A stretch of DNA of 64,000 nt from an uncultured Thermotogae bacterium. Lineage in GTDB: Bacteria; Bipolaricaulota; Bipolaricaulia; UBA7950; UBA9294. How positions within the stretch are numbered: the stretch's first letter is position 1; every line of letters starts with the position of its first letter. Shown here piece by piece: positions 21,475 through 61,096 of this stretch. Where the stretch lies: assembly GCA_964608345.1 (NCBI GenBank), contig CAZSNG010000006.1, forward strand, positions 1,317-65,316, read 5' to 3'. The position numbers were made by a program, and so were the translations under genes. The notes under the pieces are model-generated. The model was given only the letters and a program-made list of their open reading frames with translations, did not search any database and was not told the origin of the DNA.

Positions 21475-21571
21475 TCCTGCATCGCTCCTTGAACGGAGGA
21501 GGCAGGGTCGGACGGCGGACTCGGCGAAGCGCCGATCGGCTCAATCGATGGACGTGCTGTCGTTCGTTCAT

Positions 21572-21659
21572 GGTTCCCTACGCTGGCATTACCCAGTTCA
21601 GGTTCTGCGGGTCGAGGGTGCCTCCTCCTCTCAGCCCAAGCTATTGGGCTCCCCGAACG
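21572..21659 (-). promoter_or_regulatory. TPP (THI-box) riboswitch
   Basis: Minus strand: GTTCGGGGAGCCCAATAGCTTGGGCTGAGAGGAGG...GACCCGCAGAACCTGAACTGGGTAATGCCAGCGTAGGGAAC, with the conserved CTGAGA, ACCTGA and TAATGCCAGCGTAGG elements and P1 GTTC/GAAC; upstream of thiamine genes. Confidence 0.96.
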
Positions 21660-21664
21660 GCGCT

Positions 21665-21693
21665 ACTCTACCGAACCGACTGCGGCAAGGCAA
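21665..21693 (-). promoter_or_regulatory. Sigma70-type promoter of the thi operon
   Basis: TTGCCT-N17-TAGAGT; the predicted start site coincides with the 5' end of the aptamer. Confidence 0.7.
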
Positions 21694-36262: not shown

Positions 36263-37042
36263 ATGAGGAAGATTCTCTGGATCGATCCGGTCGGGACCAA
36301 TCTTTTCGACGAGCCGATCAAGGCGTTCCTCGACACCGCGAAGGATGGCGACACGCAGCTTGACATCTGCTCGCTCGAGCGCGGGCCGATGCATCTCGAG
36401 TACCACTACTACGAGGCGCTCATCCTTGCCGACACGTTGCACGTGGTGAAGAAGGCCGAGAACGACGGCTACGACGCGGCTGTAATCGGCTGTTTCTACG
36501 ATCCGGGACTCCACGAAGCGCGCGAGATCTGCGACCGGATGGTCGTCACCGCACCGGCCGAGTCGGCGATGCACATCGCCACCACGCTCGGCCATTCCTT
36601 CTCGATTCTCGTCGGGCGCAAGAAGTGGATTCCCAAGATGCACCAGAACGTCGTCAAGTACGGGTTCGAAGGCCAACTAGCCTCGTTCAAGTCGCTTGAG
36701 ATGGGCGTCTACGACTTCCAGAAGGACCCGGCCGAGACCGAGCGACGGATGACGGACGCTTCGCGCGAAGCAGTGGAGGAGGACGGCGCCGAGTCGATCG
36801 TCCTCGGATGCACGATCGAATTCGGCTTCTACGAGAAGCTGCAGAGGGAGATCGGCGTCCCAGTCATCGATGCGACGATCGCCCCGCTCAAGTATGCCGA
36901 GTTCCTGGTCGGCCTCCGCGATCGATTCTCGTGGGGGCACAGCAAGGTCTACGGCTACGAGTCGCCGCCTGGCTCGGAGATCGTCGACTGGAAGCTTGCA
37001 TCGCAGTACGACATCGAAGGGCTATGGGGGACGACGGAATGA
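36263..37042 (+). CDS. Asp/Glu/hydantoin racemase family (hydantoin-racemase-like)
   Basis: DAAVIGCFYDPGL, SIVLGCT, GVPVID: both catalytic Cys motifs present. Confidence 0.9.
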   Translation: MRKILWIDPVGTNLFDEPIKAFLDTAKDGDTQLDICSLERGPMHLEYHYYEALILADTLHVVKKAENDGYDAAVIGCFYDPGLHEAREICDRMVVTAPAESAMHIATTLGHSFSILVGRKKWIPKMHQNVVKYGFEGQLASFKSLEMGVYDFQKDPAETERRMTDASREAVEEDGAESIVLGCTIEFGFYEKLQREIGVPVIDATIAPLKYAEFLVGLRDRFSWGHSKVYGYESPPGSEIVDWKLASQYDIEGLWGTTE

Positions 37043-38643
37043 GCAACACCGCACAACTGCGAGTCGGGTTCGACGTTGGCGGGACGTTCACCGACGGCGT
37101 GTTGATGATGGGGCGCGAGGTCATCGCTAAGGCGAAGTCGCTCACCACCCAAGACGTCACCTCGGGGATCGTCGAGGCGCTCGACCGCGTTCTCGAGGGA
37201 TCGGCCGTCGACCTGAGCCGGATCTCGATGGTCTCGCTCGGAACGACGCACACGACCAACGCACTCATCGAGCGCCGAAACCTGAACAAGGTCGGCATCT
37301 TCCGGCTCGGCGCGCCCGCAACGACCGCGATCCCGCCCTTGACCGGGTGGCCGGACGACCTGAAGGAGGCGATCGGCGGGCAGGAAGTTGTCTATGTCAT
37401 CCGAGGCGGATCGGAGTACGACGGCCGCGACATCGTGCCGCTCGACAAGCAGGCGATCGCGAATGCGTGCGCGGCGATGAGGGGGAAGGTCGACTCGGTA
37501 GCGATCACCGGCGTCTTCTCGCCGATCATCTCCGATCACGAGGAATGGGCCGAGGAGGTCGTACGAAGCGTGCTCGGGGACGAGATCCACGTCACGCTGT
37601 CCCATCGAATCGCGACGATCTCGCTCCTCGAGCGGGAGAACTCGACGATCCTCAATGCCGCGGTGATCACGGTGATGCAACGTGCCGTTCAGTCGCTGAA
37701 AGCGGCGGTCGCCGAGCGTGGGATCGAGGCGCCGCTGTTCATCGTCCAGAACGATGGGAGCGTGATGTCGGCCGATTACGCCGTCGACTACCCGATCTTC
37801 ACCGTCGCTTCCGGCCCGGCGGCCAGTGTGCGGGGATCGGTCTATCTCTCAGGTATTGAAGACGGCGTTGTCGCCGACATCGGCGGGACATCGACCGACG
37901 TCGCCTACATCGTCAAGGGATTCCCGCGTGAGTCGTCGATCACCGTCAACATCGGTGGTGTGAAGACGAACATCCGCTGTCCCGACCTCCTGTCGATCGC
38001 GCTCGGCGGCGGGACGATCGTCAAGCACGAAGGGGACGACGTCACCGGCCTCGGGCCGGAGAGCGTCGGCTACAACCTCGTCCGGCTCGGCACGTCGTTC
38101 GGCGGGCCGCTGCTGACCGTCCACGATACCGCCGTCGCCCTCGGCAAGCTCGACACGCGGCTCGACGTCTTCACAACGGACTTCGTCACTGCGCCGGAGA
38201 AGATCGCGGCCGTGCCTCGCTCGCTGATCGAAAGCGCGTGGGAGGCGATCCGGAAGACGATCGAGGAAGCGATCGACAAGATGAAGACGACGGCCGAGCC
38301 GGTCCCCGCCATCTTCATCGGCGGCGGAGCGCTCGTCGTTCCCAAGACGGGCCTCTCCGGCGTGAGCGAGGCGATCAGTCCCGATCACTTCGAGGTGGGA
38401 GGCGCGGTCGGGACGACGATCGCCGAGATCGGGGCCTACGCCGAAGGCGTTGTGGATCTCGACGTGGAGGACCGCGACGAAGCGATCGAGCGAGTCACTG
38501 AGCACGCGATCGACAACGCCGTCAAGGCGGGCGCGATCCGCGAGACGGCCGAGGTGATCGACATCGAGGAGATTCCGTTCACCTACATGCCCGGCAAACG
38601 CGAGAAGATCCGGATCCGCGTGAAAGGGAAGGTGCTGCAGTGA
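37039..38643 (+). CDS. Short hydantoinase/oxoprolinase A-like ATPase (DUF917-associated type)
   Basis: GFDVGGTFTD, LGTTHTTNAL, LERENSTILNA, SGPAASVRG, DIGGTSTD, LGGG. Confidence 0.9.
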   Translation: MSNTAQLRVGFDVGGTFTDGVLMMGREVIAKAKSLTTQDVTSGIVEALDRVLEGSAVDLSRISMVSLGTTHTTNALIERRNLNKVGIFRLGAPATTAIPPLTGWPDDLKEAIGGQEVVYVIRGGSEYDGRDIVPLDKQAIANACAAMRGKVDSVAITGVFSPIISDHEEWAEEVVRSVLGDEIHVTLSHRIATISLLERENSTILNAAVITVMQRAVQSLKAAVAERGIEAPLFIVQNDGSVMSADYAVDYPIFTVASGPAASVRGSVYLSGIEDGVVADIGGTSTDVAYIVKGFPRESSITVNIGGVKTNIRCPDLLSIALGGGTIVKHEGDDVTGLGPESVGYNLVRLGTSFGGPLLTVHDTAVALGKLDTRLDVFTTDFVTAPEKIAAVPRSLIESAWEAIRKTIEEAIDKMKTTAEPVPAIFIGGGALVVPKTGLSGVSEAISPDHFEVGGAVGTTIAEIGAYAEGVVDLDVEDRDEAIERVTEHAIDNAVKAGAIRETAEVIDIEEIPFTYMPGKREKIRIRVKGKVLQ

Positions 38644-39818
38644 GCGATCGACGGACCGACCCGCGCAGGATTCTTGCCGACTGGGGTGTCACCGGTTTCC
38701 GCGTGATTGACAAGGAAGCGATCAGCGAGATCACCCTCGGGGCGTCGATCCTCGCCACCGGCGGCGGAGGCGATCCGGAGATCGGCCTCCTCTGGACATA
38801 TAAGGTGATCGACGAGGGGAAAGAGATCCTGATGGTCGACCCGATGGACGTTCCAGACGAGGTGCAAACGGCCAGTGCGGCCTGCCTCGGCGCGGCGATC
38901 GTACTGACCGAGAAGCCGCCGAGCAGCTCGGTGATCAACCTGGCGATCCGGAAGCTGGAAACGTACATGGACTGCTCGATCGAGGCGATGATTCCGCTCG
39001 AATGCGGCGGCGTGAATTCGCCTGTCTCCTACGCGGCAGCCGGCGAGTTCGGAATCCCCGTCATCGATGTCGACGGGATGAACCGTGCCTTCCCGGAACT
39101 CCAGATGACATCGTGGGTAACGCACGGCTGTCACTCGTCTCCGACCGTCTCGGTCGACGACCGGCAGAACATCTCCGTGATTGACACCGGCGACGACGAC
39201 ATGCTGGCCGAGACACTGGCGCGGCGGGTAGCCATGGCCTACGGAGGAATCTCGTGGATCGCCACCTATCCGCTGACCGGAGCGCAGATGAAACGAACGT
39301 CGATTCTCGGCTCGCAGAGCATCGCCTGGGCCGTCGGTCGCGCCGTGATGCGGGCTCGACGGGAGCACCTCGACCCGATCGCCGAACTGCTGGGCAGCCT
39401 GAAGGAAGAGCGAAATGTCGAGGGCTATCGGGTCTTCCGCGGGAAGATCGTCGATATCCGTCGCGACTTCGGATCCGAGACGAACAAGGGTTTCACCCTC
39501 GGATCGATCGTGATGGAGGGGATCGACGACTACAAGGAGCAGACGGCGAGGCTCGACTTCCAGAACGAGTGGCTCAACCTACGAGTCAACGACGAGATCC
39601 TCTGTCTCCCGCCTGACCTGATAGCGATCCTCGATTCGGAGACGGGCGAGCCGATCCGAACCGACATCATGAAGTACGGATACCGGGGGACAATCGTCCT
39701 CATCCCGGCACACGAGCGGATGAGAACGCCCAAGGGGATCGAGATGTTCGGTCCGCGCCACTTCGGTTATGACCTTGACTACGCAACGGTCGAGGAGCTG
39801 AACGAACACAGGAGGTGA
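38640..39818 (+). CDS. DUF917-family protein, paralog 1
   Basis: LATGGGGDP, PLECGGVN, DVDGMNRAFPELQMTS, FQNE, PPDLI, GEPIRT. Confidence 0.9.
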   Translation: MSDRRTDPRRILADWGVTGFRVIDKEAISEITLGASILATGGGGDPEIGLLWTYKVIDEGKEILMVDPMDVPDEVQTASAACLGAAIVLTEKPPSSSVINLAIRKLETYMDCSIEAMIPLECGGVNSPVSYAAAGEFGIPVIDVDGMNRAFPELQMTSWVTHGCHSSPTVSVDDRQNISVIDTGDDDMLAETLARRVAMAYGGISWIATYPLTGAQMKRTSILGSQSIAWAVGRAVMRARREHLDPIAELLGSLKEERNVEGYRVFRGKIVDIRRDFGSETNKGFTLGSIVMEGIDDYKEQTARLDFQNEWLNLRVNDEILCLPPDLIAILDSETGEPIRTDIMKYGYRGTIVLIPAHERMRTPKGIEMFGPRHFGYDLDYATVEELNEHRR

Positions 39819-39825
39819 TGGGGGA

Positions 39826-40095
39826 GTGGACTACGAGGGATTGTTCGCAGGCGACGCTCGTCATCGCGAGGTCTTGAAGGCGATCCTCGAGTCGCCGTTC
39901 ATCGAGCGCCAGGCGCTTGGCGAGAAGCTGGCCGTTCCGAGCGACGAGCTCGATCCTCTCCTCGCGGCGTTGGTGGAGAAGATGCTGGTGCTCGAGCTGG
40001 CGAGCCAGGCCGATTCCAGCATCGAGGCTCGCGTCCCGAAGACGGTGTACATGATCAACCCCGAGGAGGAAGCAGGCGTCCGTGAGCACGTGTAA
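39826..40095 (+). CDS. Small hypothetical protein, possible winged-helix fold
   Basis: 89 aa, GGGGA RBS, coupled to both neighbours; amphipathic HTH-like pattern (REVLKAIL..P...LGEKL....ELDPLLAALVEK.LV). Confidence 0.6.
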   Translation: MDYEGLFAGDARHREVLKAILESPFIERQALGEKLAVPSDELDPLLAALVEKMLVLELASQADSSIEARVPKTVYMINPEEEAGVREHV

Positions 40096-41188
40096 GCCGA
40101 TCGATCATGAGAAGCGAATCGTTGCGTTGCAGCGCGAGATAGCGACCGCATCGGTCGACCTCGTCCTCCTCTTCCATCGCGACAACATCCGCTATTTCAC
40201 CGGGTTTCGGATCAACAAAGTCATCTCGTCGGTCCTCGCTGTTCCGCGGAGCGGGCCGCCGACGTACGTTGTGGCACGGCTCGACATGGAGCGCGCCAAG
40301 CGCGACTGCTGGATCGAGCAGCTGATCGCGTTTCCGGAGGACACGCCAGACCCTCTCTCCGCCCTGGATCCGCTCCTTCCGGCGCCGGTGAAGCGGATCG
40401 GCGTCGAGCATGGAACGATCACGCTCGAGCAGGCCGAGTTCATCAAGGGTCGGCGAGCAGCGGAGACCGTGTTGCTCGATGCCCAGCCGCTCGTCGATCG
40501 CCTCCGCGTGATCAAGAGCGTGGCCGAGATCGAGCGGCTGCGTGAATCGGCGCGGATCGCGAGTCGGGTCATGCAGCGGATTCAGGCCGAGCTCCGGCCC
40601 GGGCTGATCGAGGCGGAATTGGCGGCGTGGACCGAGCACCTGCTGGTCAAGGAAGGGGCCGAGGGCTCGTCGTTCGAGGCATTCATGACCTCGGGCGCCA
40701 ACGCGTGGCTCCCACAACGTGTCCCGGTGCGCAAGCCGATCCGAGACGGGGAAATGATCCTCCTCGACATGGGTGGGGTCTACGACGGCTACTGCTCCGA
40801 CATCACGAGAACGCTTTCGACCAACGGCCTCTCACCCGACCAACGGCGGCTATTCGACAGCGTTCGGCGGGCGTATGAGCGCGCGCTTGACGCAGTGCGG
40901 TCGGGTGTGACGGCTGAGGAGGTCGATGCCGCGGCCCGAGACCTGCTGCGCGCCGAGGGGTACGGCGAGTACTTCACCCACCTCACCGGACACGGGATCG
41001 GCCTGTCGACGCACGAGGGCCCGATCGTCGACGAGCACGTCGAGACCGTCCTCGCACCGGGGATGGTCTTCACGGTCGAGCCCGGGGCGTACGTACCGGG
41101 TGTCGGCGCGGCGCGGATCGAGGACATGGTGTTGGTCACCGAAACGGGGTACGAGATCCTGACCGACGCCCCACGCGAGATCGAGTAG
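40082..41188 (+). CDS. M24 Xaa-Pro peptidase (prolidase/aminopeptidase P)
   Basis: LLDMG, YCSDITRT, HLTGHGIGLSTHE, TVEPG, RIED metal ligands. Confidence 0.95.
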   Translation: MSTCKPIDHEKRIVALQREIATASVDLVLLFHRDNIRYFTGFRINKVISSVLAVPRSGPPTYVVARLDMERAKRDCWIEQLIAFPEDTPDPLSALDPLLPAPVKRIGVEHGTITLEQAEFIKGRRAAETVLLDAQPLVDRLRVIKSVAEIERLRESARIASRVMQRIQAELRPGLIEAELAAWTEHLLVKEGAEGSSFEAFMTSGANAWLPQRVPVRKPIRDGEMILLDMGGVYDGYCSDITRTLSTNGLSPDQRRLFDSVRRAYERALDAVRSGVTAEEVDAAARDLLRAEGYGEYFTHLTGHGIGLSTHEGPIVDEHVETVLAPGMVFTVEPGAYVPGVGAARIEDMVLVTETGYEILTDAPREIE

Positions 41189-41214
41189 GACGGGCAGGCG
41201 AGGAAGGAGCGATC

Positions 41215-42357
41215 GTGGGCGTGAGGGAGATCCTTGGAGAATGGCAGGTCACCGACTACCGCGTGATCGACAGGGAGGCGCTGGCTGAGATTACGCTCGG
41301 GGCGTCGGTCCTAGCGACGGGAGGTGGAGGGGACCCCGAGATCGGCCTGCTGTGGGCCTACAATGTCGTCGATCAGGGAAACGAGATTCTTCTGATCGAC
41401 CCCGACGCGATCCCCGACGAGGCGCTGGCGACGATTGCGGGCTGCCTCGGTGCGGCGCTCGTTCTGACCGAGAAGCCCCCGAACGGCCAGGAACTGTTCT
41501 GGTGCTACGATCGCCTTCGCCGCTACATGGGAAGGTCGGTGCAGGCGGTGATCCCGGCCGAGGCTGGAGGCGTCAACACGCCGGTCCCGATGGCTGTCGC
41601 CGGTGCGGTCGGCGTGCCGGTGATCGACGCCGACGGAATGGGGCGAGCCTTTCCCGAGCTTCAGATGACTTCGTTCTACACCCACGGCTGCCAGCCGGCT
41701 CCGGTGGCACTGGCCAACGAGAAGGGGCACGTCACGATCTGCGATTCCGAGGACGGTCTGCTGACTGAGCGGATCGCCCGAGCCGCGGCGATGGCCTATG
41801 GCGGGATCTCATGGATCGCCGGCTATCCGTTGACCGGGCGGCAGATTCGGGAGACCGCGATCTTGCGTTCGGTCACCCTGGCGTGGAATCTCGGCAGACG
41901 GATCTTCGAGGCGCGCCGGAAGCACCTCGATCCGATCGAGGAGACGCTGAATCTCACCAACGGCTACTGCGCCTTCACCGGGAAGATCGTCGACATCAAC
42001 CGCGAATTCGGGGCCGAAAAGACGAAGGGATTCTCCCTCGGCGAGATCACGATGGAGGGGATTGACGCGGACAAAGGGCGGACAGCCCGGATCGGGTTCC
42101 AGAACGAGTGGCTGACCTTCGACGTCGATGGCCGAATCCTCTGTCTGCCGCCGGATCTGATCTGCATCCTCGATCCGGCGACCGGCGAGCCGATCCGCAC
42201 CGACATCGTCAAGTACGGCTACCGCGGCTCGGTGATCCTGATCCCGGCTCATGAGCGGATGCGGACGCCGAAGGGCATCGAAACGTTCGGTCCGCGCTAC
42301 TTCGGTTACGAGTACGACTACGTCCCGGTCGAGCAGCTACGGGAGGGCATCGCCTGA
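41215..42357 (+). CDS. DUF917-family protein, paralog 2
   Basis: LATGGGGDPEIGLLW, PAEAGGVN, DADGMGRAFPELQMTS, GFQNEW, LPPDLI, TGEPIRTD. Confidence 0.9.
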   Translation: MGVREILGEWQVTDYRVIDREALAEITLGASVLATGGGGDPEIGLLWAYNVVDQGNEILLIDPDAIPDEALATIAGCLGAALVLTEKPPNGQELFWCYDRLRRYMGRSVQAVIPAEAGGVNTPVPMAVAGAVGVPVIDADGMGRAFPELQMTSFYTHGCQPAPVALANEKGHVTICDSEDGLLTERIARAAAMAYGGISWIAGYPLTGRQIRETAILRSVTLAWNLGRRIFEARRKHLDPIEETLNLTNGYCAFTGKIVDINREFGAEKTKGFSLGEITMEGIDADKGRTARIGFQNEWLTFDVDGRILCLPPDLICILDPATGEPIRTDIVKYGYRGSVILIPAHERMRTPKGIETFGPRYFGYEYDYVPVEQLREGIA

Positions 42358-43346
42358 TGAGGAACCGCAGGACGCTTCCGTTCGTCGACACGCACACCGC
42401 TGGTGAGCCGACTCGAATCGTCCTCGACGGGTTTCCGCAGCCACCCGGCGCGACGATGGAGGAGCGTAGGCAGTGGCTGAGCGTGCACGCTGACGGTCTA
42501 CGACGGCTCGTTCTCCAAGAGCCCCGCGGGCACCGTGACATGTTCGGCGCTGTGGTCTCCGAACCGGTCGACCCGACGTGTGATGCCGGCGTGTTCTTCA
42601 TCGAGAGCGGCGGGTATCTCAGAATGTGTGGGCACGGAACGATCGGCGTCGTCACGGCACTTGTCGCGTTGGGACGGTGCAGCGGGCCCGACGTAGTCCT
42701 CGACACGCCGGCCGGCCGAATCGCTTGCCGCGTCCACGGCGGCGGCGTGCCGCCGGAGGCGGTCACCATGCGGAATGTGCCCTCCTTCTACCTCGGAGAC
42801 GTCGATGTCGAAGGGACCACGGTGTCCCTCGCATTCGGAGGCAACCTCTTCGGACTGGTCGACGTCGCGGCGGCCGGTCATCGGGTCGACCGAACCGAGA
42901 TTGTCCCGCTCGTTCAAACGGCGCTCGAGCTGCGAGCGCGCGTGAACGAGCTCGGACCTTGGATGCATCCGGCCAGCGGAGAGGAGATGTGCGTTGAGCT
43001 GATCGAGTTCTTCGGGGAGGGGAACCCACCGCGAAACCTGGTTGTCTTCGGGCACGGCCAGGTCGACCGCTCCCCATGCGGGACCGGAACGAGCGCCAAG
43101 ATGGCGACCCTCCACGCCCGCGGCACGTTGGGTGTGGGAGAACCGTATCCCTACCGAAGCGTCCTCGACACGGAGTTCGTCGGACGAATCGTCGAAGAGA
43201 CAGACGTCGGAGACCATCGCGGGATCGTTCCTGAGATCACCGGAACAGCGCACATCATCGCGACGGGGGACCTGATCCTCGACGAGGACGATCCGTTCCC
43301 CGAAGGGTTTGAGCTGATGCCCGGGGCAGATCGCGGACTATTTTGA
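42357..43346 (+). CDS. Proline racemase / hydroxyproline epimerase family, two-Cys type
   Basis: DTHTAGEPTR, EPRGHRDMFG, YLRMCGHGT, DRSPCGTGTSA. Confidence 0.95.
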   Translation: MRNRRTLPFVDTHTAGEPTRIVLDGFPQPPGATMEERRQWLSVHADGLRRLVLQEPRGHRDMFGAVVSEPVDPTCDAGVFFIESGGYLRMCGHGTIGVVTALVALGRCSGPDVVLDTPAGRIACRVHGGGVPPEAVTMRNVPSFYLGDVDVEGTTVSLAFGGNLFGLVDVAAAGHRVDRTEIVPLVQTALELRARVNELGPWMHPASGEEMCVELIEFFGEGNPPRNLVVFGHGQVDRSPCGTGTSAKMATLHARGTLGVGEPYPYRSVLDTEFVGRIVEETDVGDHRGIVPEITGTAHIIATGDLILDEDDPFPEGFELMPGADRGLF

Positions 43347-43362
43347 AGAGGCCGCAAGTATA

Positions 43363-43391
43363 TTGAAACGCCGACGGTCATCACCTACCCT
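43363..43391 (+). promoter_or_regulatory. Putative sigma70 promoter of the second XRE operon
   Basis: TTGAAA-N17-TACCCT, 9 nt before ATG 43401, no SD. Confidence 0.55.
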
Positions 43392-43400
43392 CTTCGCATC

Positions 43401-44012
43401 ATGAACGAGATCGGCGTTCGCCTTCGAGAGGCGCGGCTCCAGCATGGCTGGACGCTCGATGGACTCTCCGAACGTTGCGGTCTGTCGCAGAGCTTCCTAT
43501 CGCAGGTCGAGCGGGGTCTATCGACCTTGTCCATCGTATCGCTATCCGCGATCTGCAAGGCCCTTGAGCTCCCGATCGAAACGCTCTTCTCGAGCAGCGC
43601 GCCCCTCGATCAGCGGTCGCCCCGGGTCACTACGGCCGATCGGCAGCTACTGATCCGGATTGGGGACTCCCCCGTGTCGTATCGCTATCTGAGCGGGCAA
43701 CTTCCCTCGTCGCCGATCGCTGAGCTGCTGATCGCGGAGTTCCCTGTTGGTTGCGACCAGCGCGACAGCACGCATGAGGGACAGGAGCTGGGCTACATCC
43801 TCGAGGGCGCACTCGACTTGCGTGTTGGGGAGGAGGAGCATCGCCTGGCTGTCGGTGACAGCTATCGGATCGATGCGTCCGAGCCGCACGACTACCGGAC
43901 GTCGGCCGATCTTGGCGCGAGGGTCTTGATGGCGGTGACTCAACGGTTCATCGAGGTCCCCCGCGAGGACGCATTGGGACGGGAGAGCCCTGCCCCCAAC
44001 GGGGCCACGTGA
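43401..44012 (+). CDS. Second XRE-HTH plus cupin regulator
   Basis: LREARLQHGWTLDGLS...SQSFLSQVERG; THEGQELGYILEG; PHDYR. Confidence 0.93.
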   Translation: MNEIGVRLREARLQHGWTLDGLSERCGLSQSFLSQVERGLSTLSIVSLSAICKALELPIETLFSSSAPLDQRSPRVTTADRQLLIRIGDSPVSYRYLSGQLPSSPIAELLIAEFPVGCDQRDSTHEGQELGYILEGALDLRVGEEEHRLAVGDSYRIDASEPHDYRTSADLGARVLMAVTQRFIEVPREDALGRESPAPNGAT

Positions 44013-44028
44013 GGAGAGAACAACGACG

Positions 44029-46227
44029 ATGGGACGAATCGAACAGCACCCGATCGTACGCAAGGAATGGAAGAATCCGTTTTCGTTCTCGTTCGACGGG
44101 AAGGAGATCGAAGCGTATCCCGATGAGATGATCTCCTCGGCGCTCTTCGCCGCGGGGATCCGCGTCTTCGGGCATCACCATCGCGATGGTGCGCCGCAGG
44201 GGATCTACTGCGCCAATGGCCAGTGCGCCCAGTGTCTCGTCTTGGCGGACGGCATCCCCGTGAAGGCATGCATGACGCCGACGGCGCCCGGCATGTGCGT
44301 CGAGCCGGTCGACGGGTTGCCGGTGCTGCCGGCGCTCGATCGGGTTCCGGAGATGTCCGAGGCCGAAACGATCTCCGTGCCGGTCCTCATCCTCGGTGGC
44401 GGCCCGGCGGGAATGTCGGCGGCGCTCGAGATCGGCGGTCGCGGCGTCGAAACGATTCTCGTCGACGACAAGGACAGGCTCGGCGGGAAGCTCGTCCTCC
44501 AGACGCACCGCTTCTTCGGATCGATCAACGCGGTGCATGCAGGGACGCGGGGCATCGACATCGGCACGCGCCTCGCGCGTGAGGTCGAGGCGCTCGACTC
44601 GGTTGACGTCTGGCTGAACGCCACCGCCCTTGCCGTCTTCGCCGACAGGAAGGTCGGGATCTTGCGTGGCGACAGGGTTGTCCACGTGGAGCCGGAGATT
44701 CTCCTCGTCGCCACCGGCGCGCGGGAGAAGTCGCTCGTCTTCAACGGCAACACCCTTCCCGGTGTCTACGGGGCGGGCGCGTTCCAAACGCTCGTCAACC
44801 GGGACCTCGTCCGCGCCGCCGACCGCCTGTTCATCGTCGGTGGCGGGAATGTCGGGCTGATCGCCGGGTATCACGCGCTCCAGGCGGGCATCGACGTGGT
44901 CGGACTCGTCGAGGCGCTGCCCGAGTGCGGCGGCTACAAGGTGCACAAGGACAAGCTCGCACGGATGGGTGTGCCGATCTACACCTCACATACGATCGTC
45001 TCCGCCAACGGATCGGATCGGGTCGAGTCGGTGACGATCGCGGAGGTGGACGGATCCTTCCGGCCGGACGCTGGTTCGGAGCGATCGTTCGACTGCGACA
45101 CGGTGTTGGTCGCCGTCGGACTCGATCCGGTCGATGAGTTCCTCGATGCCGCGCGCCGTTTCGACCTGCCGGTGTTCGCCGCCGGCGATGCCGAGGAGAT
45201 CGCCGAGGCGTCGGCCGCGATCTTCTCCGGACGGATCCAAGGCGTCGAGATCGCCCGCCATCTCGGCGTGTCCGGCGACGCGATCCCGGACGATTGGCGG
45301 TCGATGTCCGAGATCCTCCGCTCGAAGCCGGGAAGCATCGTGGAGCGTCCGGGGCCGGAGAGCGTGGCGGGAGTCCGACCCGTCTTTCACTGCACACAGG
45401 AGATCCCGTGCAACCCGTGCTCGTCGGTCTGCCCGCAGGGGCTGATCCGGATCGACGAGGAGGACATCCGCGCGCTTCCGCAATACGTCGCCGACGAAGT
45501 CGAGAAGGCATGCCTTGGGTGCGAACGGTGCATCACGATCTGCCCCGGCCTCGCGATCACGCTTCTGGACGGCCGCGACGATCCGGCGAACCCGCTGGTC
45601 ACGATTCCGTTCGAGTACGAGCCGGACCGACTGGCCGTTGGCGATGATGTCGAGGTCCTCGATGCGGTCGGGGAGCTGCTTGGCTCCGTGCCCGTCGTCG
45701 AACGGAAAGCAATCCCGGCGAACGACCGAACCGTCCTGATCGCGTTCCGCGCGCCGGCCGAGATCGCCGCGCGAATCGCCGGGATCCGCCTGCAAGAGCC
45801 GTGGGTCGGGGATTCTCGCGCCGAAGCGATTGAGCCGCTTCGGGACACTGACATCGTCTGTCGATGCGAGCGGGTGACCGCCGGGGAGATCCGCGAACTG
45901 ATCCGCGCCGGCATCCGAGACGTGAACGAGATCAAGACGATCACGCGAGCAGGCATGGGCGCCTGTGGGGGAAAGACGTGCCAGTCGTTGATCGGGCGCC
46001 TCTTTCGTGAGGAGGGGGTGTCCCTCGATGAGGTGACGGACCAGGTTCCTCGACCGCTGTTCGTCGAGGTCCCGCTCGGTTCGTTCGCCGGGATCGTCTC
46101 GAGCGTCGAATCGGTGCGCTCGTTCGAATCGGGCGGGGATCGTCTTGAGCCGCGAATGGGTCCGTCCGGCTCGAGCCGGGCAGGGAGCCCTGCGAACTCC
46201 CTGCGCTGGAGGTGCTCTCGTGACTAG
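44029..46227 (+). CDS. Fused [2Fe-2S]/FAD-NAD oxidoreductase/2x[4Fe-4S]/BFD protein; alpha-type subunit of a proline/hydroxyproline dehydrogenase or sarcosine/opine oxidase-like complex
   Basis: CANGQCAQC...C, GGGPAG, ATGARE, GGGNVG, CTQEIPCNPCSSVCP, CLGCERCITICP, CRCE...GMGACGGKTC. Confidence 0.88.
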   Translation: MGRIEQHPIVRKEWKNPFSFSFDGKEIEAYPDEMISSALFAAGIRVFGHHHRDGAPQGIYCANGQCAQCLVLADGIPVKACMTPTAPGMCVEPVDGLPVLPALDRVPEMSEAETISVPVLILGGGPAGMSAALEIGGRGVETILVDDKDRLGGKLVLQTHRFFGSINAVHAGTRGIDIGTRLAREVEALDSVDVWLNATALAVFADRKVGILRGDRVVHVEPEILLVATGAREKSLVFNGNTLPGVYGAGAFQTLVNRDLVRAADRLFIVGGGNVGLIAGYHALQAGIDVVGLVEALPECGGYKVHKDKLARMGVPIYTSHTIVSANGSDRVESVTIAEVDGSFRPDAGSERSFDCDTVLVAVGLDPVDEFLDAARRFDLPVFAAGDAEEIAEASAAIFSGRIQGVEIARHLGVSGDAIPDDWRSMSEILRSKPGSIVERPGPESVAGVRPVFHCTQEIPCNPCSSVCPQGLIRIDEEDIRALPQYVADEVEKACLGCERCITICPGLAITLLDGRDDPANPLVTIPFEYEPDRLAVGDDVEVLDAVGELLGSVPVVERKAIPANDRTVLIAFRAPAEIAARIAGIRLQEPWVGDSRAEAIEPLRDTDIVCRCERVTAGEIRELIRAGIRDVNEIKTITRAGMGACGGKTCQSLIGRLFREEGVSLDEVTDQVPRPLFVEVPLGSFAGIVSSVESVRSFESGGDRLEPRMGPSGSSRAGSPANSLRWRCSRD

Positions 46228-46345
46228 GACCTACGATGTGATTAGCGTCTCGAACGCCGGATGGGACGATGCGTTCGAGCCGGGCAGGGAATCGCTTGGA
46301 TTCCCTGCGTCGGGAGGGCTAGCGTGAGTCGGACGTACGATGTCG
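46141..46345 (+). repeat. Imperfect ~104-bp tandem duplication, each unit carrying hairpin + RBS + GTG start
   Basis: Both copies share TCGAGCCGGGCAGGGA...TCCCTGCG..GGAGG.GCT..CGTGA.T.GGAC.TACGATGT; GTG codons at 46220 and 46324. Confidence 0.8.
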
Positions 46346-47478
46346 TGGTTGTGGGGGCGGGGAGTGTGGGGGTTCCGGCCGCGTGGGCGATGGCGCGATC
46401 GGGGCTGGAAGTCCTCGTCGTTGACCGGCTCGCCAGCCCCGGCCAGGGGTCGAACAAGACCGCCATCGGCGGGATGCGCGCCACCCACTCCGAGCCGGCC
46501 AAGATTCGCGTCTGCCTTCGATCGCTCGAGATCGCATCGACGTGGCGCGACACGTACGGAGACGACATCGACTGGCGAAGCGGCGGGTACTCGTTCGTCG
46601 CGTACGGGGACCGCGAGGCCCGCATCCTCGAGGGATTGATCGAGACGCAACAGGCGAGCGGCCTGGACATCGACTGGCACGATCGCGACGACCTGCTCGG
46701 GAAGATCCCTGCGCTGGCTCGTGATGGGCTGCTCGGTGGGACGTTCTCCCCCGGAGACGGGATGTGCTCACCGCTCCTTCTCGGCCACGCGATGTACCAG
46801 CAGGCGTGCCGCGCGGGCGCTGACTTCCGCTTCCACGAGGGCGTGACCGGGATCGAGGTAGAAGGGGAACGCGTCCGCGCAGTCGTGACCGACAGCGCTC
46901 GATACGAGGCGCCGGTCGTCGTGAATGCGGCCGGTGCGTGGGCGAACGAGATCGGGGCGCTGGCCGGGCTGGAGCATCCGATCGAACCCGACTCGCACGA
47001 GGGCGGGATCACCGAGCCCGTGGCGCCGTTCCTCGGACCGATGATCGTCGACATCCGGCCGAGCGAGCACGCGGCGAACTGCTACTTCTTCCAGCTGGCG
47101 ACCGGGCAGATCGTCTTCGCGCTCACGCCGAAGCCGATCGTCCCCGGATTCGACTGCGACGAGACGAGCGACTTCCTACCGATCGTCGCACGCCGGATGA
47201 TCCAGCTGGTTCCGCGGCTCGCCGGTCTGCGTGTCCGGCGGACGTGGCGCGGTCTCTACCCGATGTCGCCCGACGGCGCTCCGCTCGTCGGTCTCTCGAA
47301 GGACATCGGAGGCTACGTGATGGCGATCGGAATGTGCGGTCACGGCTTCATGCTCGGGCCGGGTCTCGGCGAGATCCTCGATCGACTCGTCCGCGACGAT
47401 CTGACGGACGACGATCGAGCCATCCTCGACGGCCTTTCACCGATCCGGTCGTTCGAGGGTCAGGCGGCACTGAAGTGA
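46324..47478 (+). CDS. FAD-dependent oxidoreductase (DAO/SoxB family); beta subunit of the dehydrogenase complex
   Basis: YDVVVVGAGSVG, VVNAAGAW, TWRGLYPMSPDGAP, GMCGHGFMLGP. Confidence 0.92.
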   Translation: MSRTYDVVVVGAGSVGVPAAWAMARSGLEVLVVDRLASPGQGSNKTAIGGMRATHSEPAKIRVCLRSLEIASTWRDTYGDDIDWRSGGYSFVAYGDREARILEGLIETQQASGLDIDWHDRDDLLGKIPALARDGLLGGTFSPGDGMCSPLLLGHAMYQQACRAGADFRFHEGVTGIEVEGERVRAVVTDSARYEAPVVVNAAGAWANEIGALAGLEHPIEPDSHEGGITEPVAPFLGPMIVDIRPSEHAANCYFFQLATGQIVFALTPKPIVPGFDCDETSDFLPIVARRMIQLVPRLAGLRVRRTWRGLYPMSPDGAPLVGLSKDIGGYVMAIGMCGHGFMLGPGLGEILDRLVRDDLTDDDRAILDGLSPIRSFEGQAALK

Positions 47479-47507
47479 GTCCGGACGGAATGAATGAGGA
47501 GATCGCC

Positions 47508-56560: not shown

Positions 56561-58285
56561 CTAGGTCGGACTTCTCTTGTGTAGGCTTCGTCCGAGAATC
56601 CAGAACAACACCGAGGTGACGACGCACAGGCCGGCGAACATCCAGACCCACCACGGGAATCCGAGCAGCGAGACGCGGCTGTCGCCCCAATTCCAGACGT
56701 CGATTCCGACGAGGAACAGCGCTGCGAAGGCGGCGCCCCAGCCGAGAACCGCGCGCCGGGTGAGCGCGCGAGGTTCTCGCGTCGACTCGCGCAGTAGCTC
56801 GGCCCGATGGATGAAGCTTCCGACGACGAGAACGAGGGTCGTCACGACGACGATCGGGACGACCGGCAGCGTTCCGAGCCGCGGGAGGAGCTTCAAGTAG
56901 TAGGCGACCACGAGCCCCTCACCGGCGACGATCGACGCAATCGCGGCGGCTGGGCTCATCCGCTTCCAGTAGAGGGCGCCGATGACGGTCGGGAAGAGGA
57001 CCGCGAGGCCGGTGAACGTCTGCGTGGCGAGGATTCGGAACGTCGCCGGCGGCTGGTAGGCGATCGCCAGCCCGACGAGGGCCAGCCCGACCACGAACGC
57101 CTTCGACATCCATTGGGGCGCTTCGGGCGATTGCGTGACCCGGTCTTGGACCGTGCCCGGCAGCTCACCAGACAGCGGAACGGGACCTTTCCTGCCGTTC
57201 CGCTCCGCGCGGTATCGCAGTAACGGTGCTGCGATATCGCGCGAAAACATAGACGACAGCGTCAGCAGCTGTGAATCGAGCGTCGACATCAGCGCCGCCA
57301 GGGCGGCCGTCAGCACGAGCGCCTCGATCGCCGGCGGCGCGTGTTCCGCCAGCATCATCGGAAGGATTCGATCGGCGGCGACGCCTTCCGGCAGGGTCGG
57401 GTAGGTCAGCCTCCCGAGAACGCCGATCGTCACCGGGAGCAAGAACAGGAACCCGGTGAGCAACGGGTAGAGCGACATCGTCGTCGCGAGCCCGCGCGGG
57501 CTCTTCGCGGCGTAGAACCGCTGGAACAGCTGAGGGAACATCGGATCGCACAGGAACCAGAGAAGCATGTATCCGAACCAGACGCCCGGCGTGTAGATCC
57601 CGCCCAGGCCGGGCCGCGCGAACAGCTCGGGGAAGTCGCCGAGGACGGTCCGATTCGCCGCAGACAGGCCGCCGAACCGCGCGGCGATGATGCCCACCGC
57701 GACGACGAGGAGAACGATCATCATCCCGCCCTGGAAAACGTCGGTCCGGGTCACGCCGCGGAAGCCGCCACGGAAGGTATACAGCAGCATGACAGCGGTG
57801 ATCAGCGCCGCGCCGGCGAAGTACGGGATCCCGAGCAGCGACTGAAGCGCGTACCCGGCGGCCATCGGTTGCATCGCGAGGTACGGGACGGTGAAGACGG
57901 TCATCACCAGGAAGAAGAGGAAGCGAAGGATCGGGCTGCCGGTCAGCCGATAGACGAGCTCCGGCGGTGTGATGAGTCCGTACTTCTTGCCCAGCTGCCA
58001 CGCCGGGCGCCCGATCAGGACGAACGTGAGCGCCATGAACCCGGTCCCGAACCCCATGATCGGGTAGTAAGCGTAGCCGCTCTCCCATCCGGCGCCGGCG
58101 AATCCGAAGACGGTGAACGCACTGAAGTTCGTCGCCGCCATCGTGAGGAACAGGACGAGCGGCGTCGTCGTGCGTGACGCGATGAAGTAGTCCTCGCTCG
58201 TCCCGCGTGCCCGGCGCATTGCCCAGAAGCCGATCCCAAGCAGGATCGCGAAGTACCCGACAACGACTGCGATTCGTACGGCCAT
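56561..58285 (-). CDS. Sodium:solute symporter (SSS, PanF/PutP-like) with C-terminal small membrane extension
   Basis: SEDYFIASR, MAATNFSAFTVFGFAG, RGGFRGVTRTDVFQG, QLFQRFYAAKS, AALMSTLDS; CAGGAGG RBS. Confidence 0.92.
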   Translation of the reverse strand: MAVRIAVVVGYFAILLGIGFWAMRRARGTSEDYFIASRTTTPLVLFLTMAATNFSAFTVFGFAGAGWESGYAYYPIMGFGTGFMALTFVLIGRPAWQLGKKYGLITPPELVYRLTGSPILRFLFFLVMTVFTVPYLAMQPMAAGYALQSLLGIPYFAGAALITAVMLLYTFRGGFRGVTRTDVFQGGMMIVLLVVAVGIIAARFGGLSAANRTVLGDFPELFARPGLGGIYTPGVWFGYMLLWFLCDPMFPQLFQRFYAAKSPRGLATTMSLYPLLTGFLFLLPVTIGVLGRLTYPTLPEGVAADRILPMMLAEHAPPAIEALVLTAALAALMSTLDSQLLTLSSMFSRDIAAPLLRYRAERNGRKGPVPLSGELPGTVQDRVTQSPEAPQWMSKAFVVGLALVGLAIAYQPPATFRILATQTFTGLAVLFPTVIGALYWKRMSPAAAIASIVAGEGLVVAYYLKLLPRLGTLPVVPIVVVTTLVLVVGSFIHRAELLRESTREPRALTRRAVLGWGAAFAALFLVGIDVWNWGDSRVSLLGFPWWVWMFAGLCVVTSVLFWILGRSLHKRSPT

Positions 58286-58353
58286 GCATCCTCCTGACAA
58301 TGAGAAACGCCGCCCAGCCGAGGCTGGGTGGCGCGGGCCTGGTCATACCTCGA

Positions 58354-58935
58354 CTGACACGGTAGCACGGGTTGGCATGGAATGCCAACCCAACGTGTCA
58401 GGGGCCGGTTTGCCGACGAACGGCAAACTGGCGTGGATGACGAACTGTCGGACGGACGGTCGTGCAACGCGCGCCAAGCCGTGGGTGTCTCAGGCCAGTC
58501 TTGCCGACGGACGGCAGACTGGCGTCGGGAGCAAATCGGACGTGGGCAGGGACGCGAGCGAATGCCAACCCACCGTGTCAGGGGCCGGTTTGCTGTCGAA
58601 CCGCAAACTGGCGCGGATGACGTACTGCCGGACGGGCGGTTGTGCAACGTGCGCGAAGCCGTGGGTGTCGCAGGCCAGTTTGCCGACGGACGGCAAGCTG
58701 GCGTCGGGAACAGATCGGACGTGGGCAGGGACGCGAGCGACTGCCAACCCGCCGTGTCAGCGGCCAGTCTGCCGACGGACGGCAAACTGGCGTGTGCAAA
58801 TCGGACGTGGGTAGGGACGCGAACAGCTGCCAATCCGCCGTGTCAGCGGACAGCTTGCCGACGGACGGGAAACTGGCGTCGGGAACAGATCGGACGTGAG
58901 CAGGGACGCGAGCGAATGCCAACCCACCGTGTCCG
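58354..58935. repeat. BIME/REP-like array: six 29-30-bp palindromes with two alternating linker types, ~90-bp period
   Basis: Consensus GCCAGTTTGCCG-ACGGA-CGGCAAACTGGC at 58404, 58494, 58584, 58674, 58763, 58849. Confidence 0.9.
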
Positions 58936-59018
58936 GAGGGAGTTCGTGCCTGCTGTTGTTTGTGGCGCCTGGCTCGCGCGGTTGGAAGGGCTCGTGTACA
59001 TTCTTCACAGGGGTTGAT

Positions 59019-59933
59019 ATGCCGAAGCTCGAAGGGATCTTCCCACCAATACCGACGCCGTTCGCCACGGACGGAGAACTCGATGTCGACGCACTCGCGG
59101 AGAACCTGCGCTGGTGGAATCGATTCGACCTGACGGGAGTCGTTGTCCTCGGATCGAACGGCGAGGCCGTCCTGCTCGACGAGAGCGAGAAGCTTCGCCT
59201 AGTCGAGACGGCGCGTGCGGAGCTCCCGAAAGGGCGCACGCTGATCGCCGGGACCGGGCTCCAGTCGACCGCGGCGACGATCCGGCTGACGCGGGCCGCC
59301 GCCGAGGCCGGCGCCGGCGCCGCGCTCGTTCTCTCCCCGTTCTACTACAAGGGGTTGATGACCGCGGATGTCCTCGAGCGGCACTTCCGGGATGTCGCCG
59401 ACGCCTCGCCGATCCCCGTCATCCTCTACAACATGCCCGCCTGCACCGGACTCGATCTCGACGCGGAGCTGATCGTGCGGCTTGCGGGACACGAGAACGT
59501 CGTCGGGCTGAAGGACTCGAGCGGCAATGTCGCCAAGCTCGGCCGACTCCACGACGAGCTTGGCGACCGCTTCTCGATTCTCGCCGGATCGGCGGGATTC
59601 CTGCTACCGGCCCTCGCTGTCGGCGCAGTCGGCGGCGTTCTCGCGCTGGCGAACATCGCGCCGCGCGAGTGCCTCGAGGTCCGGCGGCTCGCATTGGCGG
59701 AGGACATCCGGGCGGCAAGAACGCTTCAGATCCGGCTGGTGCGCCCGAACACCGCGGTGACGCGGCGCTGGGGTGTGCCCGGTCTGAAGGCGGCGATGGA
59801 GATGCTCGGTCTTCGCGGTGGTCCGGTGCGCCCGCCGCTCCGGCCGCTGGGTCCCGCCGAGTGCGACGAATTGCGATCGATCCTGCGCGACGCAAGGATC
59901 CTCGAAGTCGACGAGAAGGAGACGACCACATGA
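59019..59933 (+). CDS. DapA-family aldolase, 4-hydroxy-2-oxoglutarate aldolase (HOGA)-like
   Basis: GIFPPIPTPF, LGSNGE (rather than the GTTGE of DHDPS), ILYNMP, GLKDSSG. Confidence 0.8.
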   Translation: MPKLEGIFPPIPTPFATDGELDVDALAENLRWWNRFDLTGVVVLGSNGEAVLLDESEKLRLVETARAELPKGRTLIAGTGLQSTAATIRLTRAAAEAGAGAALVLSPFYYKGLMTADVLERHFRDVADASPIPVILYNMPACTGLDLDAELIVRLAGHENVVGLKDSSGNVAKLGRLHDELGDRFSILAGSAGFLLPALAVGAVGGVLALANIAPRECLEVRRLALAEDIRAARTLQIRLVRPNTAVTRRWGVPGLKAAMEMLGLRGGPVRPPLRPLGPAECDELRSILRDARILEVDEKETTT

Positions 59934-61096
59934 AGGACCGCACGCTGCTGATGATCCCGGGGCCGATCGAGTTCGAGCCGGCCGTATTGCAGGCGCTCGG
60001 CGCCCCGACGACCAGTCATGTCTCGCCCGACTTCATCGACGTCTTCGGACGGGCGATCGAGCGGATGCGCGAGGTGTGGCAGGCCCCGACGGGCCAGCCG
60101 TTCGTCCTCGCCGGCTCCGGCACTCTGGCGATGGACTGCGCCGGAGCAAACCTGGTCGAGCCGGGCGACCGCGCGCTCGTCCTGAGTACCGGTGTGTTTG
60201 GCGACCGGTTCGAGGATCTGCTGACGCGCTACGGCGCCGAGGTGGACGTGATCCGTGCACCGATTGGGGAGACGATCGACTTCGACGCCGTCGCGGCGGC
60301 CCTCCGCGAGAATCCGTACAAGCTGATGACGGCGACCCACGTGGATACGTCGACGGCGGTTCGGATCGACGCGGAGCGGTTCGGTGCGCTCGGCCTGGTG
60401 CACGATGTGCTCACCGTCCTCGATGGAGTCTGTTCCGTCGCCGGAGAGGAGATCTGCCAGGAGGCGTGGGGAGTCGACGTCGTGCTGACCGCATCGCAGA
60501 AGGCGGTCGGCGTGCCTCCCGGGCTGGCGCTGCTCGTCGTCAGCCAGCGCGTGCTGTGCGCGTGGGGCAAGCGCCGGACCCGGGTTGCGAACTATTACGC
60601 CGACTGGGACAAGTGGCTGCCGATCATGGCGTCGTACGAGAAGCGCGTGCCGAGCTACTTCGGGACTCCGGCGGTCAATCTGGTGTCCGCGCTCGATGTC
60701 AGCTTGGGGCAGATCCTCGAAGAGGGGATGGAAGCCCGGTTCGCGCGGCATCGTCGATTCGGCGACGCCTGCCGTGCGTCGCTTCGCGCCCTCGGGCTTG
60801 GGCAGGTGCCGACCGACGACGACCACGCGGCAAACACGCTCAGTGCGCCGCGGTTTCCGGTCGGCGTGACGAAGGCGGATCTGCTGCCGGCGATCCGACA
60901 CGCCGGGGCCATCCTTGCGGGCGGGCTGCATCCGGAGATCAAGGCCGAGTACTTCCGAATCGGCCACATGGGGGCGACGAAGCCGGGAGACCTCTTGGCG
61001 ACGATCGGGGCGATCGAGGCGGGGCTGCGGTCGAGCGGCCACGCGTTCGACGGCGGGTCCGGCCTCGCGGCTGCACAGGCTGTGCTGTTCGGATAG
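59930..61096 (+). CDS. Class V PLP aminotransferase (alanine-glyoxylate/serine-pyruvate type)
   Basis: LMIPGP, GSGTLAMD, THVDTST, LDGVCS, TASQKA (PLP Lys), YFRIGHMG; ATGA coupling. Confidence 0.92.
   Translation: MKDRTLLMIPGPIEFEPAVLQALGAPTTSHVSPDFIDVFGRAIERMREVWQAPTGQPFVLAGSGTLAMDCAGANLVEPGDRALVLSTGVFGDRFEDLLTRYGAEVDVIRAPIGETIDFDAVAAALRENPYKLMTATHVDTSTAVRIDAERFGALGLVHDVLTVLDGVCSVAGEEICQEAWGVDVVLTASQKAVGVPPGLALLVVSQRVLCAWGKRRTRVANYYADWDKWLPIMASYEKRVPSYFGTPAVNLVSALDVSLGQILEEGMEARFARHRRFGDACRASLRALGLGQVPTDDDHAANTLSAPRFPVGVTKADLLPAIRHAGAILAGGLHPEIKAEYFRIGHMGATKPGDLLATIGAIEAGLRSSGHAFDGGSGLAAAQAVLFG

Follow-up and report, generated by a model that had tools for sequence, protein, structure and literature searches.

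A locally amplified stem-loop module in the control region between divergent symporter and aldolase genes of an uncultured bacterium

The stretch of DNA analysed here (64,000 nt of contig CAZSNG010000006.1 in assembly GCA_964608345.1; hereafter, the window) derives from an uncultured bacterium of the GTDB phylum Bipolaricaulota and holds, between two divergent genes, a tandem array of six copies of a 29-nt palindrome. To the left of the array lies a gene for a sodium:solute symporter (SSF; 56561–58285, minus strand; Pfam PF00474, E = 1.5e-36), whose ATG is at 58285 and which is transcribed away from the array. To its right, a DHDPS-family aldolase gene (59019–59933, plus strand; Pfam PF00701, E = 7e-56) is followed by genes for a class-V, glyoxylate-type aminotransferase (59930–61096, plus strand; best NCBIfam match BhcA, under that model's cut-off) and an S26 peptidase. 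The original prediction, made from the sequence alone, had placed the array in the control region between a symporter and an aldolase operon, and had likened it to the bacterial interspersed mosaic elements (BIMEs) formed by repetitive extragenic palindromes (REPs). The placement is borne out by the Pfam assignments on both sides. The array itself, in our view, is better described as a locally amplified, locus-specific control-region stem-loop module than as a genome-wide REP/BIME repeat.

A non-coding array of six hairpins

Coordinates refer to the whole window and units are numbered from the symporter side; H2 denotes the 29-nt palindrome or hairpin, and H1 the inner hairpin of a larger palindrome that bounds the array on the left. 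Direct reading and a fuzzy search yield six H2 copies with the 29-nt consensus GCCAGTTTGCCG-ACGGA-CGGCAAACTGGC, a palindrome with a 12-bp stem and a 5-nt loop and a size within the 20–40 bp of REP-type palindromes. They start at 58404, 58494, 58584, 58674, 58763 and 58849, cover 58404–58877, and follow one another in steps of 90, 90, 90, 89 and 86 bp. This is the spacing first proposed. Tandem Repeats Finder detects two periods, one of 89 bp with 5 copies and one of 180 bp with 3.1 copies and 84% matches. With up to three mismatches allowed, the palindrome has four matches in the 64-kb window, all of them in the array, against an expectation of 0.00 from 100 shuffles. Alignment of the six units gives the linker order A-B-A-B-B-B, linker A following copies 1 and 3 and linker B following copies 2, 4, 5 and 6; AATGCCAACCCA, for instance, is present at 58381 and again at 58561. 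The proposed 180-bp higher-order unit, decaying into B-only units, is thereby upheld.

All copies and their flanks run head-to-tail on the plus strand, where the covariance model R1 (built on alignment A2, in which roughly a dozen lineages contribute 23 hairpin copies) scores them at 52–67 bits, versus 15–36 bits on the minus strand. Copy 1 (58404–58432) is the top-scoring one (67.5 bits), centred 54 nt upstream of a -10-like hexamer; it is followed by the first linker A (58433–58493). Copy 2 (58494–58523; 53.6 bits) is 30 nt long, with an extra bulged T and a compensated C-G pair, and precedes the first linker B (58524–58583). Then come copy 3 (58584–58612; 60.7 bits) with the second linker A (58613–58673), copy 4 (58674–58702; 59.7 bits) with the second linker B (58703–58762), and copy 5 (58763–58791; 54.4 bits) with the third linker B (58792–58848), which is 3 nt shorter and holds the sole single-nucleotide polymorphism (SNP; 58801) between two assemblies. 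Copy 6 (58849–58877; 52.7 bits), the most decayed with three mismatched pairs, is followed by the fourth linker B (58878–58935). The A units are 88% identical to one another. At 58936–58969 (plus strand), GGGAGTTCG resembles the 5' arm without a 3' arm and may be the remnant of a seventh hairpin, a weak similarity noted by reading only and below the R1 threshold.

The left end is occupied by a large palindrome without strand (58354–58401), CTGACACGG..GGGTTGGCAT-GGA-ATGCCAACCC..CGTGTCAG, in which CTGACACGG and CGTGTCAG are the outer arms and GGGTTGGCAT-GGA-ATGCCAACCC is the inner hairpin H1. Its right arm, ATGCCAACCC-N-CGTGTCAG, recurs as the end of every linker B; the first linker B closes with GAATGCCAACCCACCGTGTCAGGG, which consists of this arm and a GTGTCA box. 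The left end is indeed an inverted copy of the end of linker B, as had been suggested.

The best candidate for the symporter promoter overlaps this palindrome. It consists of a minus-strand -10-like hexamer, TACCGT (TAnnnT; 58359–58364), found at the same position in 13 of 13 lineages, and a -35-like box, TTGGCA (58383–58388, minus strand), 18 nt upstream and inside the inner palindrome. The repeated unit, with its right arm carrying the -35-like box, its GTGTCA box and its hairpin, equals the upstream half of the predicted symporter promoter minus its -10. The predicted 5' untranslated region would be about 65 nt long and would contain a conserved leader hairpin (58308–58333, minus strand) followed by a U-rich run (58297–58307), directly before the Shine-Dalgarno sequence and ATG of the symporter and again in the same place in all 13 lineages. 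The arms of this hairpin are GCCACCCAGCC-loop-GGCUGGGYGGC; in four lineages, the window's among them, the mRNA strand has A.C at one pair where the opposite strand has G.U. Together with the U-run it looks like a terminator or attenuator and may act as one. On the other side, a putative promoter block of the aldolase operon, CTCGCG-N18-TACATT (58973–59002, plus strand), ends 16 nt before the ATG. A CTCGCR-N18-TACAGT block is kept before the orthologous aldolase genes and lies only 6 nt from the ATG in some lineages, which suggests a leaderless mRNA. A sigma-54 reading was rejected, its spacing being wrong; sigma-70-like promoters used by the organism are TTGATC-N17-TATAAT before tRNA-Pro and TTGCCT-N17-TAGAGT before a thiamine pyrophosphate (TPP) riboswitch.

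That the array is not a genuine non-coding element, and is instead a repeat protein, an assembly artefact or a degenerate CRISPR (clustered regularly interspaced short palindromic repeats) locus, is scarcely credible. A coding reading could appeal to a JGI-called open reading frame (ORF) for 211 aa that crosses the array (58382–59017, plus strand) and ends 1 nt before the aldolase ATG. The GC contents of its three codon positions (GC1/2/3 0.72/0.59/0.65) are, however, non-coding in character, adjacent genes having GC3 of 0.83–0.87 (0.87 in the symporter gene) and GC2 of 0.40–0.49. The 89- and 86-bp periods shift the frame, with the result that the array units are read in three frames; the product has no Pfam domain and matches only itself among 5.8 billion proteins, and orthologous spacers keep no ORF. 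The public annotation of this 211-residue product is almost certainly spurious. The window forms part of a 118-kb contig from a JGI marine metagenome. An artefact is countered by the assembly of a second sample (L002), which gives the same six-copy array at equal length with one SNP in 4.5 kb; two further contigs break off inside the array, as repeats commonly cause. Short Logan contigs of the public run X1 span internal junctions with zero differences. In run X2, from another sample of the same study, a Logan contig joins 58545 to 58900 and skips 354 bp, equal to four units in register; 34 nt are shared at the joint, and none of the X2 contigs covers the skipped stretch. Either the assembler collapsed the repeat at this junction, or that sample truly contains a two-copy (A-B) allele. 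Finally, repeats that are 29 nt long, palindromic and evenly spaced do recall CRISPR arrays, but the 57–61-nt "spacers" are two repeated linker types, and the window contains no cas gene. The two findings by which the original prediction would have fallen, a translated repeat protein and an artefact of assembly, were thus not encountered.

Conservation, amplification and confinement of the module

Relatives were taken as the contigs of the closest aldolase homologues (66–78% identity), and orthologous spacers were compared over about 13 lineages whose DHDPS-family proteins are 68–78% identical; these lineages probably belong to Bipolaricaulota. The arrangement of divergent symporter and aldolase genes is kept, with the same SSF neighbour, and the spacer between them measures 224–733 bp. 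It always opens with the leader hairpin and U-rich run, a conserved 30-nt block and the large palindrome, which is kept at the left-end position while its inner sequences differ. Next follows, in most lineages, at least one module composed of CCGTGTCAnnG, a hairpin with a 12-bp stem (core AGTTTGC..GCAAACT) and CGTnGG. Among 11 hairpin-bearing lineages, the centre of the first H2 lies 54–60 nt upstream of the minus-strand TAnnnT hexamer in 10, corresponding to about -66 to -72, whereas the last hairpin can be as near as 33 nt or more than 95 nt away from the aldolase promoter-like block. The fixed spacing on one side and the variable spacing on the other make the module architecturally part of the upstream region of the predicted symporter promoter. 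At more distant aldolase loci (48–61% identity) the module was not found.

Copy number, counted as R1 matches per lineage, differs widely among relatives. There is no copy in L028 and L026, one in L009, L029 and L011, one to two in L012, L025 and L017, two in L019 and L006, three in L021 and L022, four in L020 and at least four in L023, compared with six in the window. As for the comparison of copy number between strains envisaged at the outset, the L002 assembly also has six copies, while lineages of relatives range from none to at least four and the X2 contig hints at a two-copy allele. L019 has a single A-B dimer, so the 180-bp A+B unit is older than the window's own lineage. The units are 80–92% identical within the window and 92–98% within L023, whereas window units and foreign units share at most 67%; as units are more alike within than between lineages, the amplifications are independent and lineage-specific.

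Other pieces of the same spacer have been multiplied as well. In L020 (1900–2230) and L006 (1–250), the unit comprises a CTCGCA-N18-TACAGT box resembling the aldolase promoter, a GCGTGACnCGC..GCGAGTCACGC palindrome and a hairpin; because the promoter-like box is included, these arrays may carry several promoter copies. In L017 (2390–2460), the amplified piece is a 12-mer that forms a microsatellite, (GGGAACAGATCG)n, and has an inverted counterpart in the same spacer; this 12-mer is also present in linker B of the window.

Such events invite the view that the repeat is largely neutral, with one or two functional copies, the rest being by-products of a spacer prone to slippage and unequal crossover, and a symmetry maintained by template-switch mutation instead of selection. 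Amplification of different segments at the same spot (hairpin and linker in the window and L021–L023, box units in L006 and L020, the 12-mer in L017) speaks for it, as do the decay of copy 6 and the X2 contig that lacks four in-register units, a sign that a two-copy allele may coexist. So does the comparison of young duplicates, in which the hairpin retains an identity of 0.88 and the linkers 0.82–0.86, all parts being 82–90% identical, which gives no sign of selection on the extra copies. On the other hand, the copies of the window differ by 8–20% while the two assemblies differ by one SNP in 4.5 kb, which makes the array old and stable relative to population diversity. The same spacer has been amplified in at least five lineages, which may mean recurrent selection. 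Between A and B units, moreover, H2 is 81% identical and the linkers only 36–41%; as H2 has outlasted the linkers across this old split, selection has preserved two copies or more. We regard a largely neutral repeat as rather unlikely; it is an account of the extra copies alone and is compatible with a DNA-site function of the basic module.

Within the DNA searched, the module is confined to one locus. When R1 is run on the window together with 92 loci (542 kb), all its matches with E < 0.01 fall in the symporter–aldolase spacer of the close clade, best on the plus strand everywhere except in L017 and L018, where the minus strand scores higher. Neither a pattern search nor R1 finds a palindrome copy outside the array in the 64-kb window. 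The strict palindrome pattern, too strict for the variants of relatives, has one match in 185,579 reference genomes, a chance match in fabF of a Vicinamibacterales metagenome-assembled genome, and none among JGI metagenome contigs, a collection from which the source contig itself is absent; the array has no blastn match among plasmids and phages. Of the genome-wide search foreseen for the palindrome, then, the absence of dispersed copies holds for the window, the related loci and, under the strict pattern, the reference genomes, a set that does not cover the complete genome of this organism. Among viral contigs, the palindrome core found one unrelated low-GC IMG/VR contig (L096) with 22-bp tandem palindromes (TTGCCGGTTTTCGGCAAACTGGA). 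About three of these (10340–10460) overlap the 5' part of a minus-strand ORF (9960–10820) and have a TTTGCCG-N5-CGGCAAA core in common with the array; they probably form an operator or iteron array, and the resemblance may be due to chance.

These observations bear directly on the proposed REP/BIME organisation. A mobile palindrome, whether REP/BIME-like, a paired REP (REPIN), a miniature inverted-repeat transposable element (MITE) or a CGTC-tagged REP, could have been spread by a REP-associated tyrosine transposase (RAYT) or a different transposase whose gene lies in another part of the genome. The array does share with REPs and BIMEs a short, GC-rich, imperfect palindrome of 29 nt in an intergenic mosaic with alternating linkers of two types, and CTGACACGG and CCGTGTCAG resemble terminal inverted repeats. 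The 3' flank of H2 reads CGTC, one of two tags described for REPs (PMC3733652), in three of the six window copies; in the other copies and in relatives it is CGTG, CGCG or CGTT. However, the stem of CGTC REPs is 8–9 bp long and opens with A-T pairs, and their tail is CCA (PMC3733652); H2 fits them neither in stem length nor in its first base pairs, nor is the tail matched. H2 has no adjacent GTAG tag. BIMEs contain REPs in alternating orientation (PMC2817692), and REP families form head-to-tail dimers to a negligible extent or not at all (PMC3733652), whereas the copies of the array are all direct. REPs number from tens to thousands per genome (PMC2817692, PMC3733652) and sit mostly between co-directional or convergent genes (PMC3733652), unlike a module found at a single locus, between divergent genes, at an orthologous position kept across lineages whose proteins are just 68–78% identical. 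As originally observed, the window encodes no RAYT: a domain search found no Y1/HUH (RAYT) or insertion sequence (IS) transposase domain in the window ORFs or in locus L001, which spans 20 kb. A single gene of the window is recombinase-like; it encodes a short tyrosine recombinase (Phage_integrase family, 205 aa; 12810–13427, minus strand), which lies beside a gene for an HD-domain protein, 45 kb from the array. A mobile palindrome is thus very improbable, and the REP/BIME organisation is the part of the original prediction that we abandon.

A candidate DNA site and its structural alternatives

Covariation among the copies, proposed from the start as a check, is strong. In alignment A2, pairing is kept in 92.4% of the pair cells, both sides have changed in 7 of the 12 pairs and 26 cells are compensatory; none of 500 shuffles reaches the observed values, and slid controls show 28–41% pairing. 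The loops of H2 vary in sequence and in length (3–8 nt) while the stem is kept, and three different perfect palindromes occur within one genome, L021. H1 is kept in structure and not in sequence, and the segment between H1 and H2, CCGUGUCA, is conserved and unpaired.

These features would suit a structured RNA, in which H1, the single-stranded CCGUGUCA and H2 are transcribed as a small RNA (sRNA) or as part of a long leader. The array would then specify one RNA of many modules or a set of sRNA copies, much like tandem sRNA arrays or protein-sponge RNAs. The plus strand of the array region also folds with z = -4.6. In 3 of 13 lineages, a plus-strand TAnnnT overlaps the minus-strand hexamer and has CTGACA 17 nt upstream, and this could be a divergent promoter. 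Several observations argue otherwise. In a comparison aimed at the functional strand, G:U-type mismatches number 16 on the plus strand and 11 on the minus strand (G:U versus A:C; p = 0.44); such a lack of significant bias is to be expected if the site is double-stranded DNA. No array unit has a promoter-like or U-tailed terminator-like site, and Rfam gives no match at E ≤ 1 on either strand of 57800–59400. A transcript from either of the predicted left-end promoters would begin inside or downstream of H1. Quasipalindrome correction by template switching is an established mutational mechanism, and covariation within a short palindrome can also come from such switching during replication; a partly mutational origin of the covariation would agree with the tendency of this spacer to duplicate and with neutral extra copies. 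As for transcripts, three metatranscriptomes of the same study contain nothing from this organism, the L029 locus is found in no RNA run, and for the L021 locus only DNA runs are listed. A structured RNA is therefore possible but, in our estimation, unlikely.

We tentatively favour, at somewhat less than an even chance, a regulatory palindrome of the symporter/aldolase control region that acts at the level of DNA and has been multiplied by unequal recombination. Features expected of an operator are found here together: the palindromic core is highly conserved (the GTGTCA box and the stem core AGTTTGC..GCAAACT by at least 90% over the 23 copies), its distance to the predicted promoter is fixed in 10 of 11 lineages, and the control regions are orthologous. 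We envision an ancestral module of four parts, namely the right arm of the promoter-overlapping large palindrome, the GTGTCA box, H2 with its 12-bp stem and a short GTnGG flank, which would constitute a lineage-specific cis-regulatory element with its first copy at about -66 to -72 from the putative symporter promoter. H2 and the GTGTCA/TGACAC boxes would be the DNA sites of a putative sequence-specific regulator of both divergent transcription units, recognised as double-stranded DNA and not as a hairpin or RNA. The old A-B dimer, common to sister lineages, would have been doubled in this organism as a 180-bp block, and unequal recombination between repeats, or slippage during replication, would then have produced further B units. 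The outcome would be six regulator sites 90 bp apart, with the two promoters separated by about 500 bp more, and expression might vary with copy number.

Several considerations weigh against such an operator. A regulator gene lies beside the spacer in no lineage, a second H2 site is seen nowhere else, and it is unusual for an operator confined to one locus to have no regulator encoded beside it. Two XRE-cupin regulators are encoded at 43401 and 25464, 15 and 33 kb from the array, and nothing ties them to H2. The stem covaries outside its conserved core, even between copies of one genome; since a dimeric DNA-binding protein does not require covariation there, this points to hairpin formation, whether in RNA, in a cruciform or during replication template switching. 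The centres of the half-sites lie 16 bp from each other; a separation of about 1.5 helical turns is not typical of sites bound by helix-turn-helix dimers. The hairpin of young duplicates is conserved no better than their linkers, so the extra copies may be neutral, and both the symporter and the aldolase promoters are predicted from sequence. A LacI/PurR-type operator was rejected, its half-sites being in the opposite order, and a CsrA-type reading of the GGA loops was rejected as well, as the loops are not conserved.

These counter-points also keep alive, next to a structured RNA, a cruciform or another form read by a structure-specific protein. In its strongest version, the two-hairpin module of this Bipolaricaulota-like clade from marine and sediment habitats would be a new structured non-coding RNA, or else a hairpin or cruciform in DNA bound by a structure-specific protein, and its repeated independent amplification (from 2 to at least 6 copies in at least five lineages) would represent adaptive evolution of gene regulation by way of cis-element copy number and not neutral slippage. 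We consider this proposal doubtful.

The regulatory palindrome that we favour would serve an aldolase–aminotransferase operon which probably acts in hydroxy-oxoglutarate/glyoxylate metabolism; relatives of the aldolase carry the JGI name 4-hydroxy-2-oxoglutarate aldolase. Elsewhere in the window, a cluster at 36800–47500 encodes hydantoinase/oxoprolinase-like, S-Me-THD-like, M24 prolidase, proline-racemase-family and two-subunit FAD dehydrogenase proteins together with an XRE-cupin regulator (43401–44012); it looks like a pathway of proline/hydroxyproline or peptide catabolism and may be functionally linked to the operon. At the gathering level, Rfam matches over the whole window are limited to one tRNA and one TPP riboswitch (66.9 bits; 21558–21665, minus strand), the latter upstream of the thiamine-related TPK, NMT1/THI5 and ABC transporter genes. 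A MoxR AAA ATPase/DUF58/BatA-VWA operon of the aerotolerance type (2644–8769, minus strand) lies downstream of dnaX and tRNA-Pro. The nearest named homologues are MutL proteins of Candidatus Bipolaricaulota (60–64% identity) and, for the aldolase, proteins of Candidatus Acetothermia/Bipolaricaulia (58–60%); on this evidence the source would probably belong to that phylum or be a neighbour of it.

Comparison with known repeated elements

If it is true that copy number tunes the expression of the symporter and the aldolase–aminotransferase operon, the array would be a case of natural regulatory evolution through tandem amplification upstream of a promoter, in a phylum without experimental genetics. 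R1 and the 23-copy alignment can be used to screen the complete genomes and metatranscriptomes of the clade, and the analysis flags a spurious ORF in public annotation.

Three known systems bear comparison. The centromere of the F plasmid, sopC, consists of 43-bp repeats that form tandem palindromic protein-binding sites. Like sopC and other multi-operator arrays, the present array is built of direct tandem units with one inverted repeat and a conserved core each, in copy numbers that differ among relatives; it differs in lying in a chromosomal metabolic control region, in having no adjacent gene for a binding protein, and in a 90-bp unit far longer than the site. The sRNA arrays NsiR1 of Nostoc and LhrC1-4 of Listeria have a promoter and a U-tailed terminator of their own in each unit. 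They resemble our array as intergenic repeated units with a stable hairpin and a copy number that varies among relatives, whereas here neither a promoter nor a terminator is detectable per unit. Mycobacterial interspersed repetitive units (MIRUs) occupy many loci per genome, often between co-transcribed genes, and can carry small ORFs. Likeness to them lies in intergenic tandem repeats of 40–100 bp in a GC-rich genome, with a lineage-variable copy number that probably arises by slippage or unequal crossover; the module described here, in contrast, is found at one locus and is built on a conserved, covarying palindrome. The array illustrates that a repeat with the appearance of a REP or BIME can instead be a single-locus regulatory module, conserved over an uncultured clade and multiplied independently in several of its lineages.

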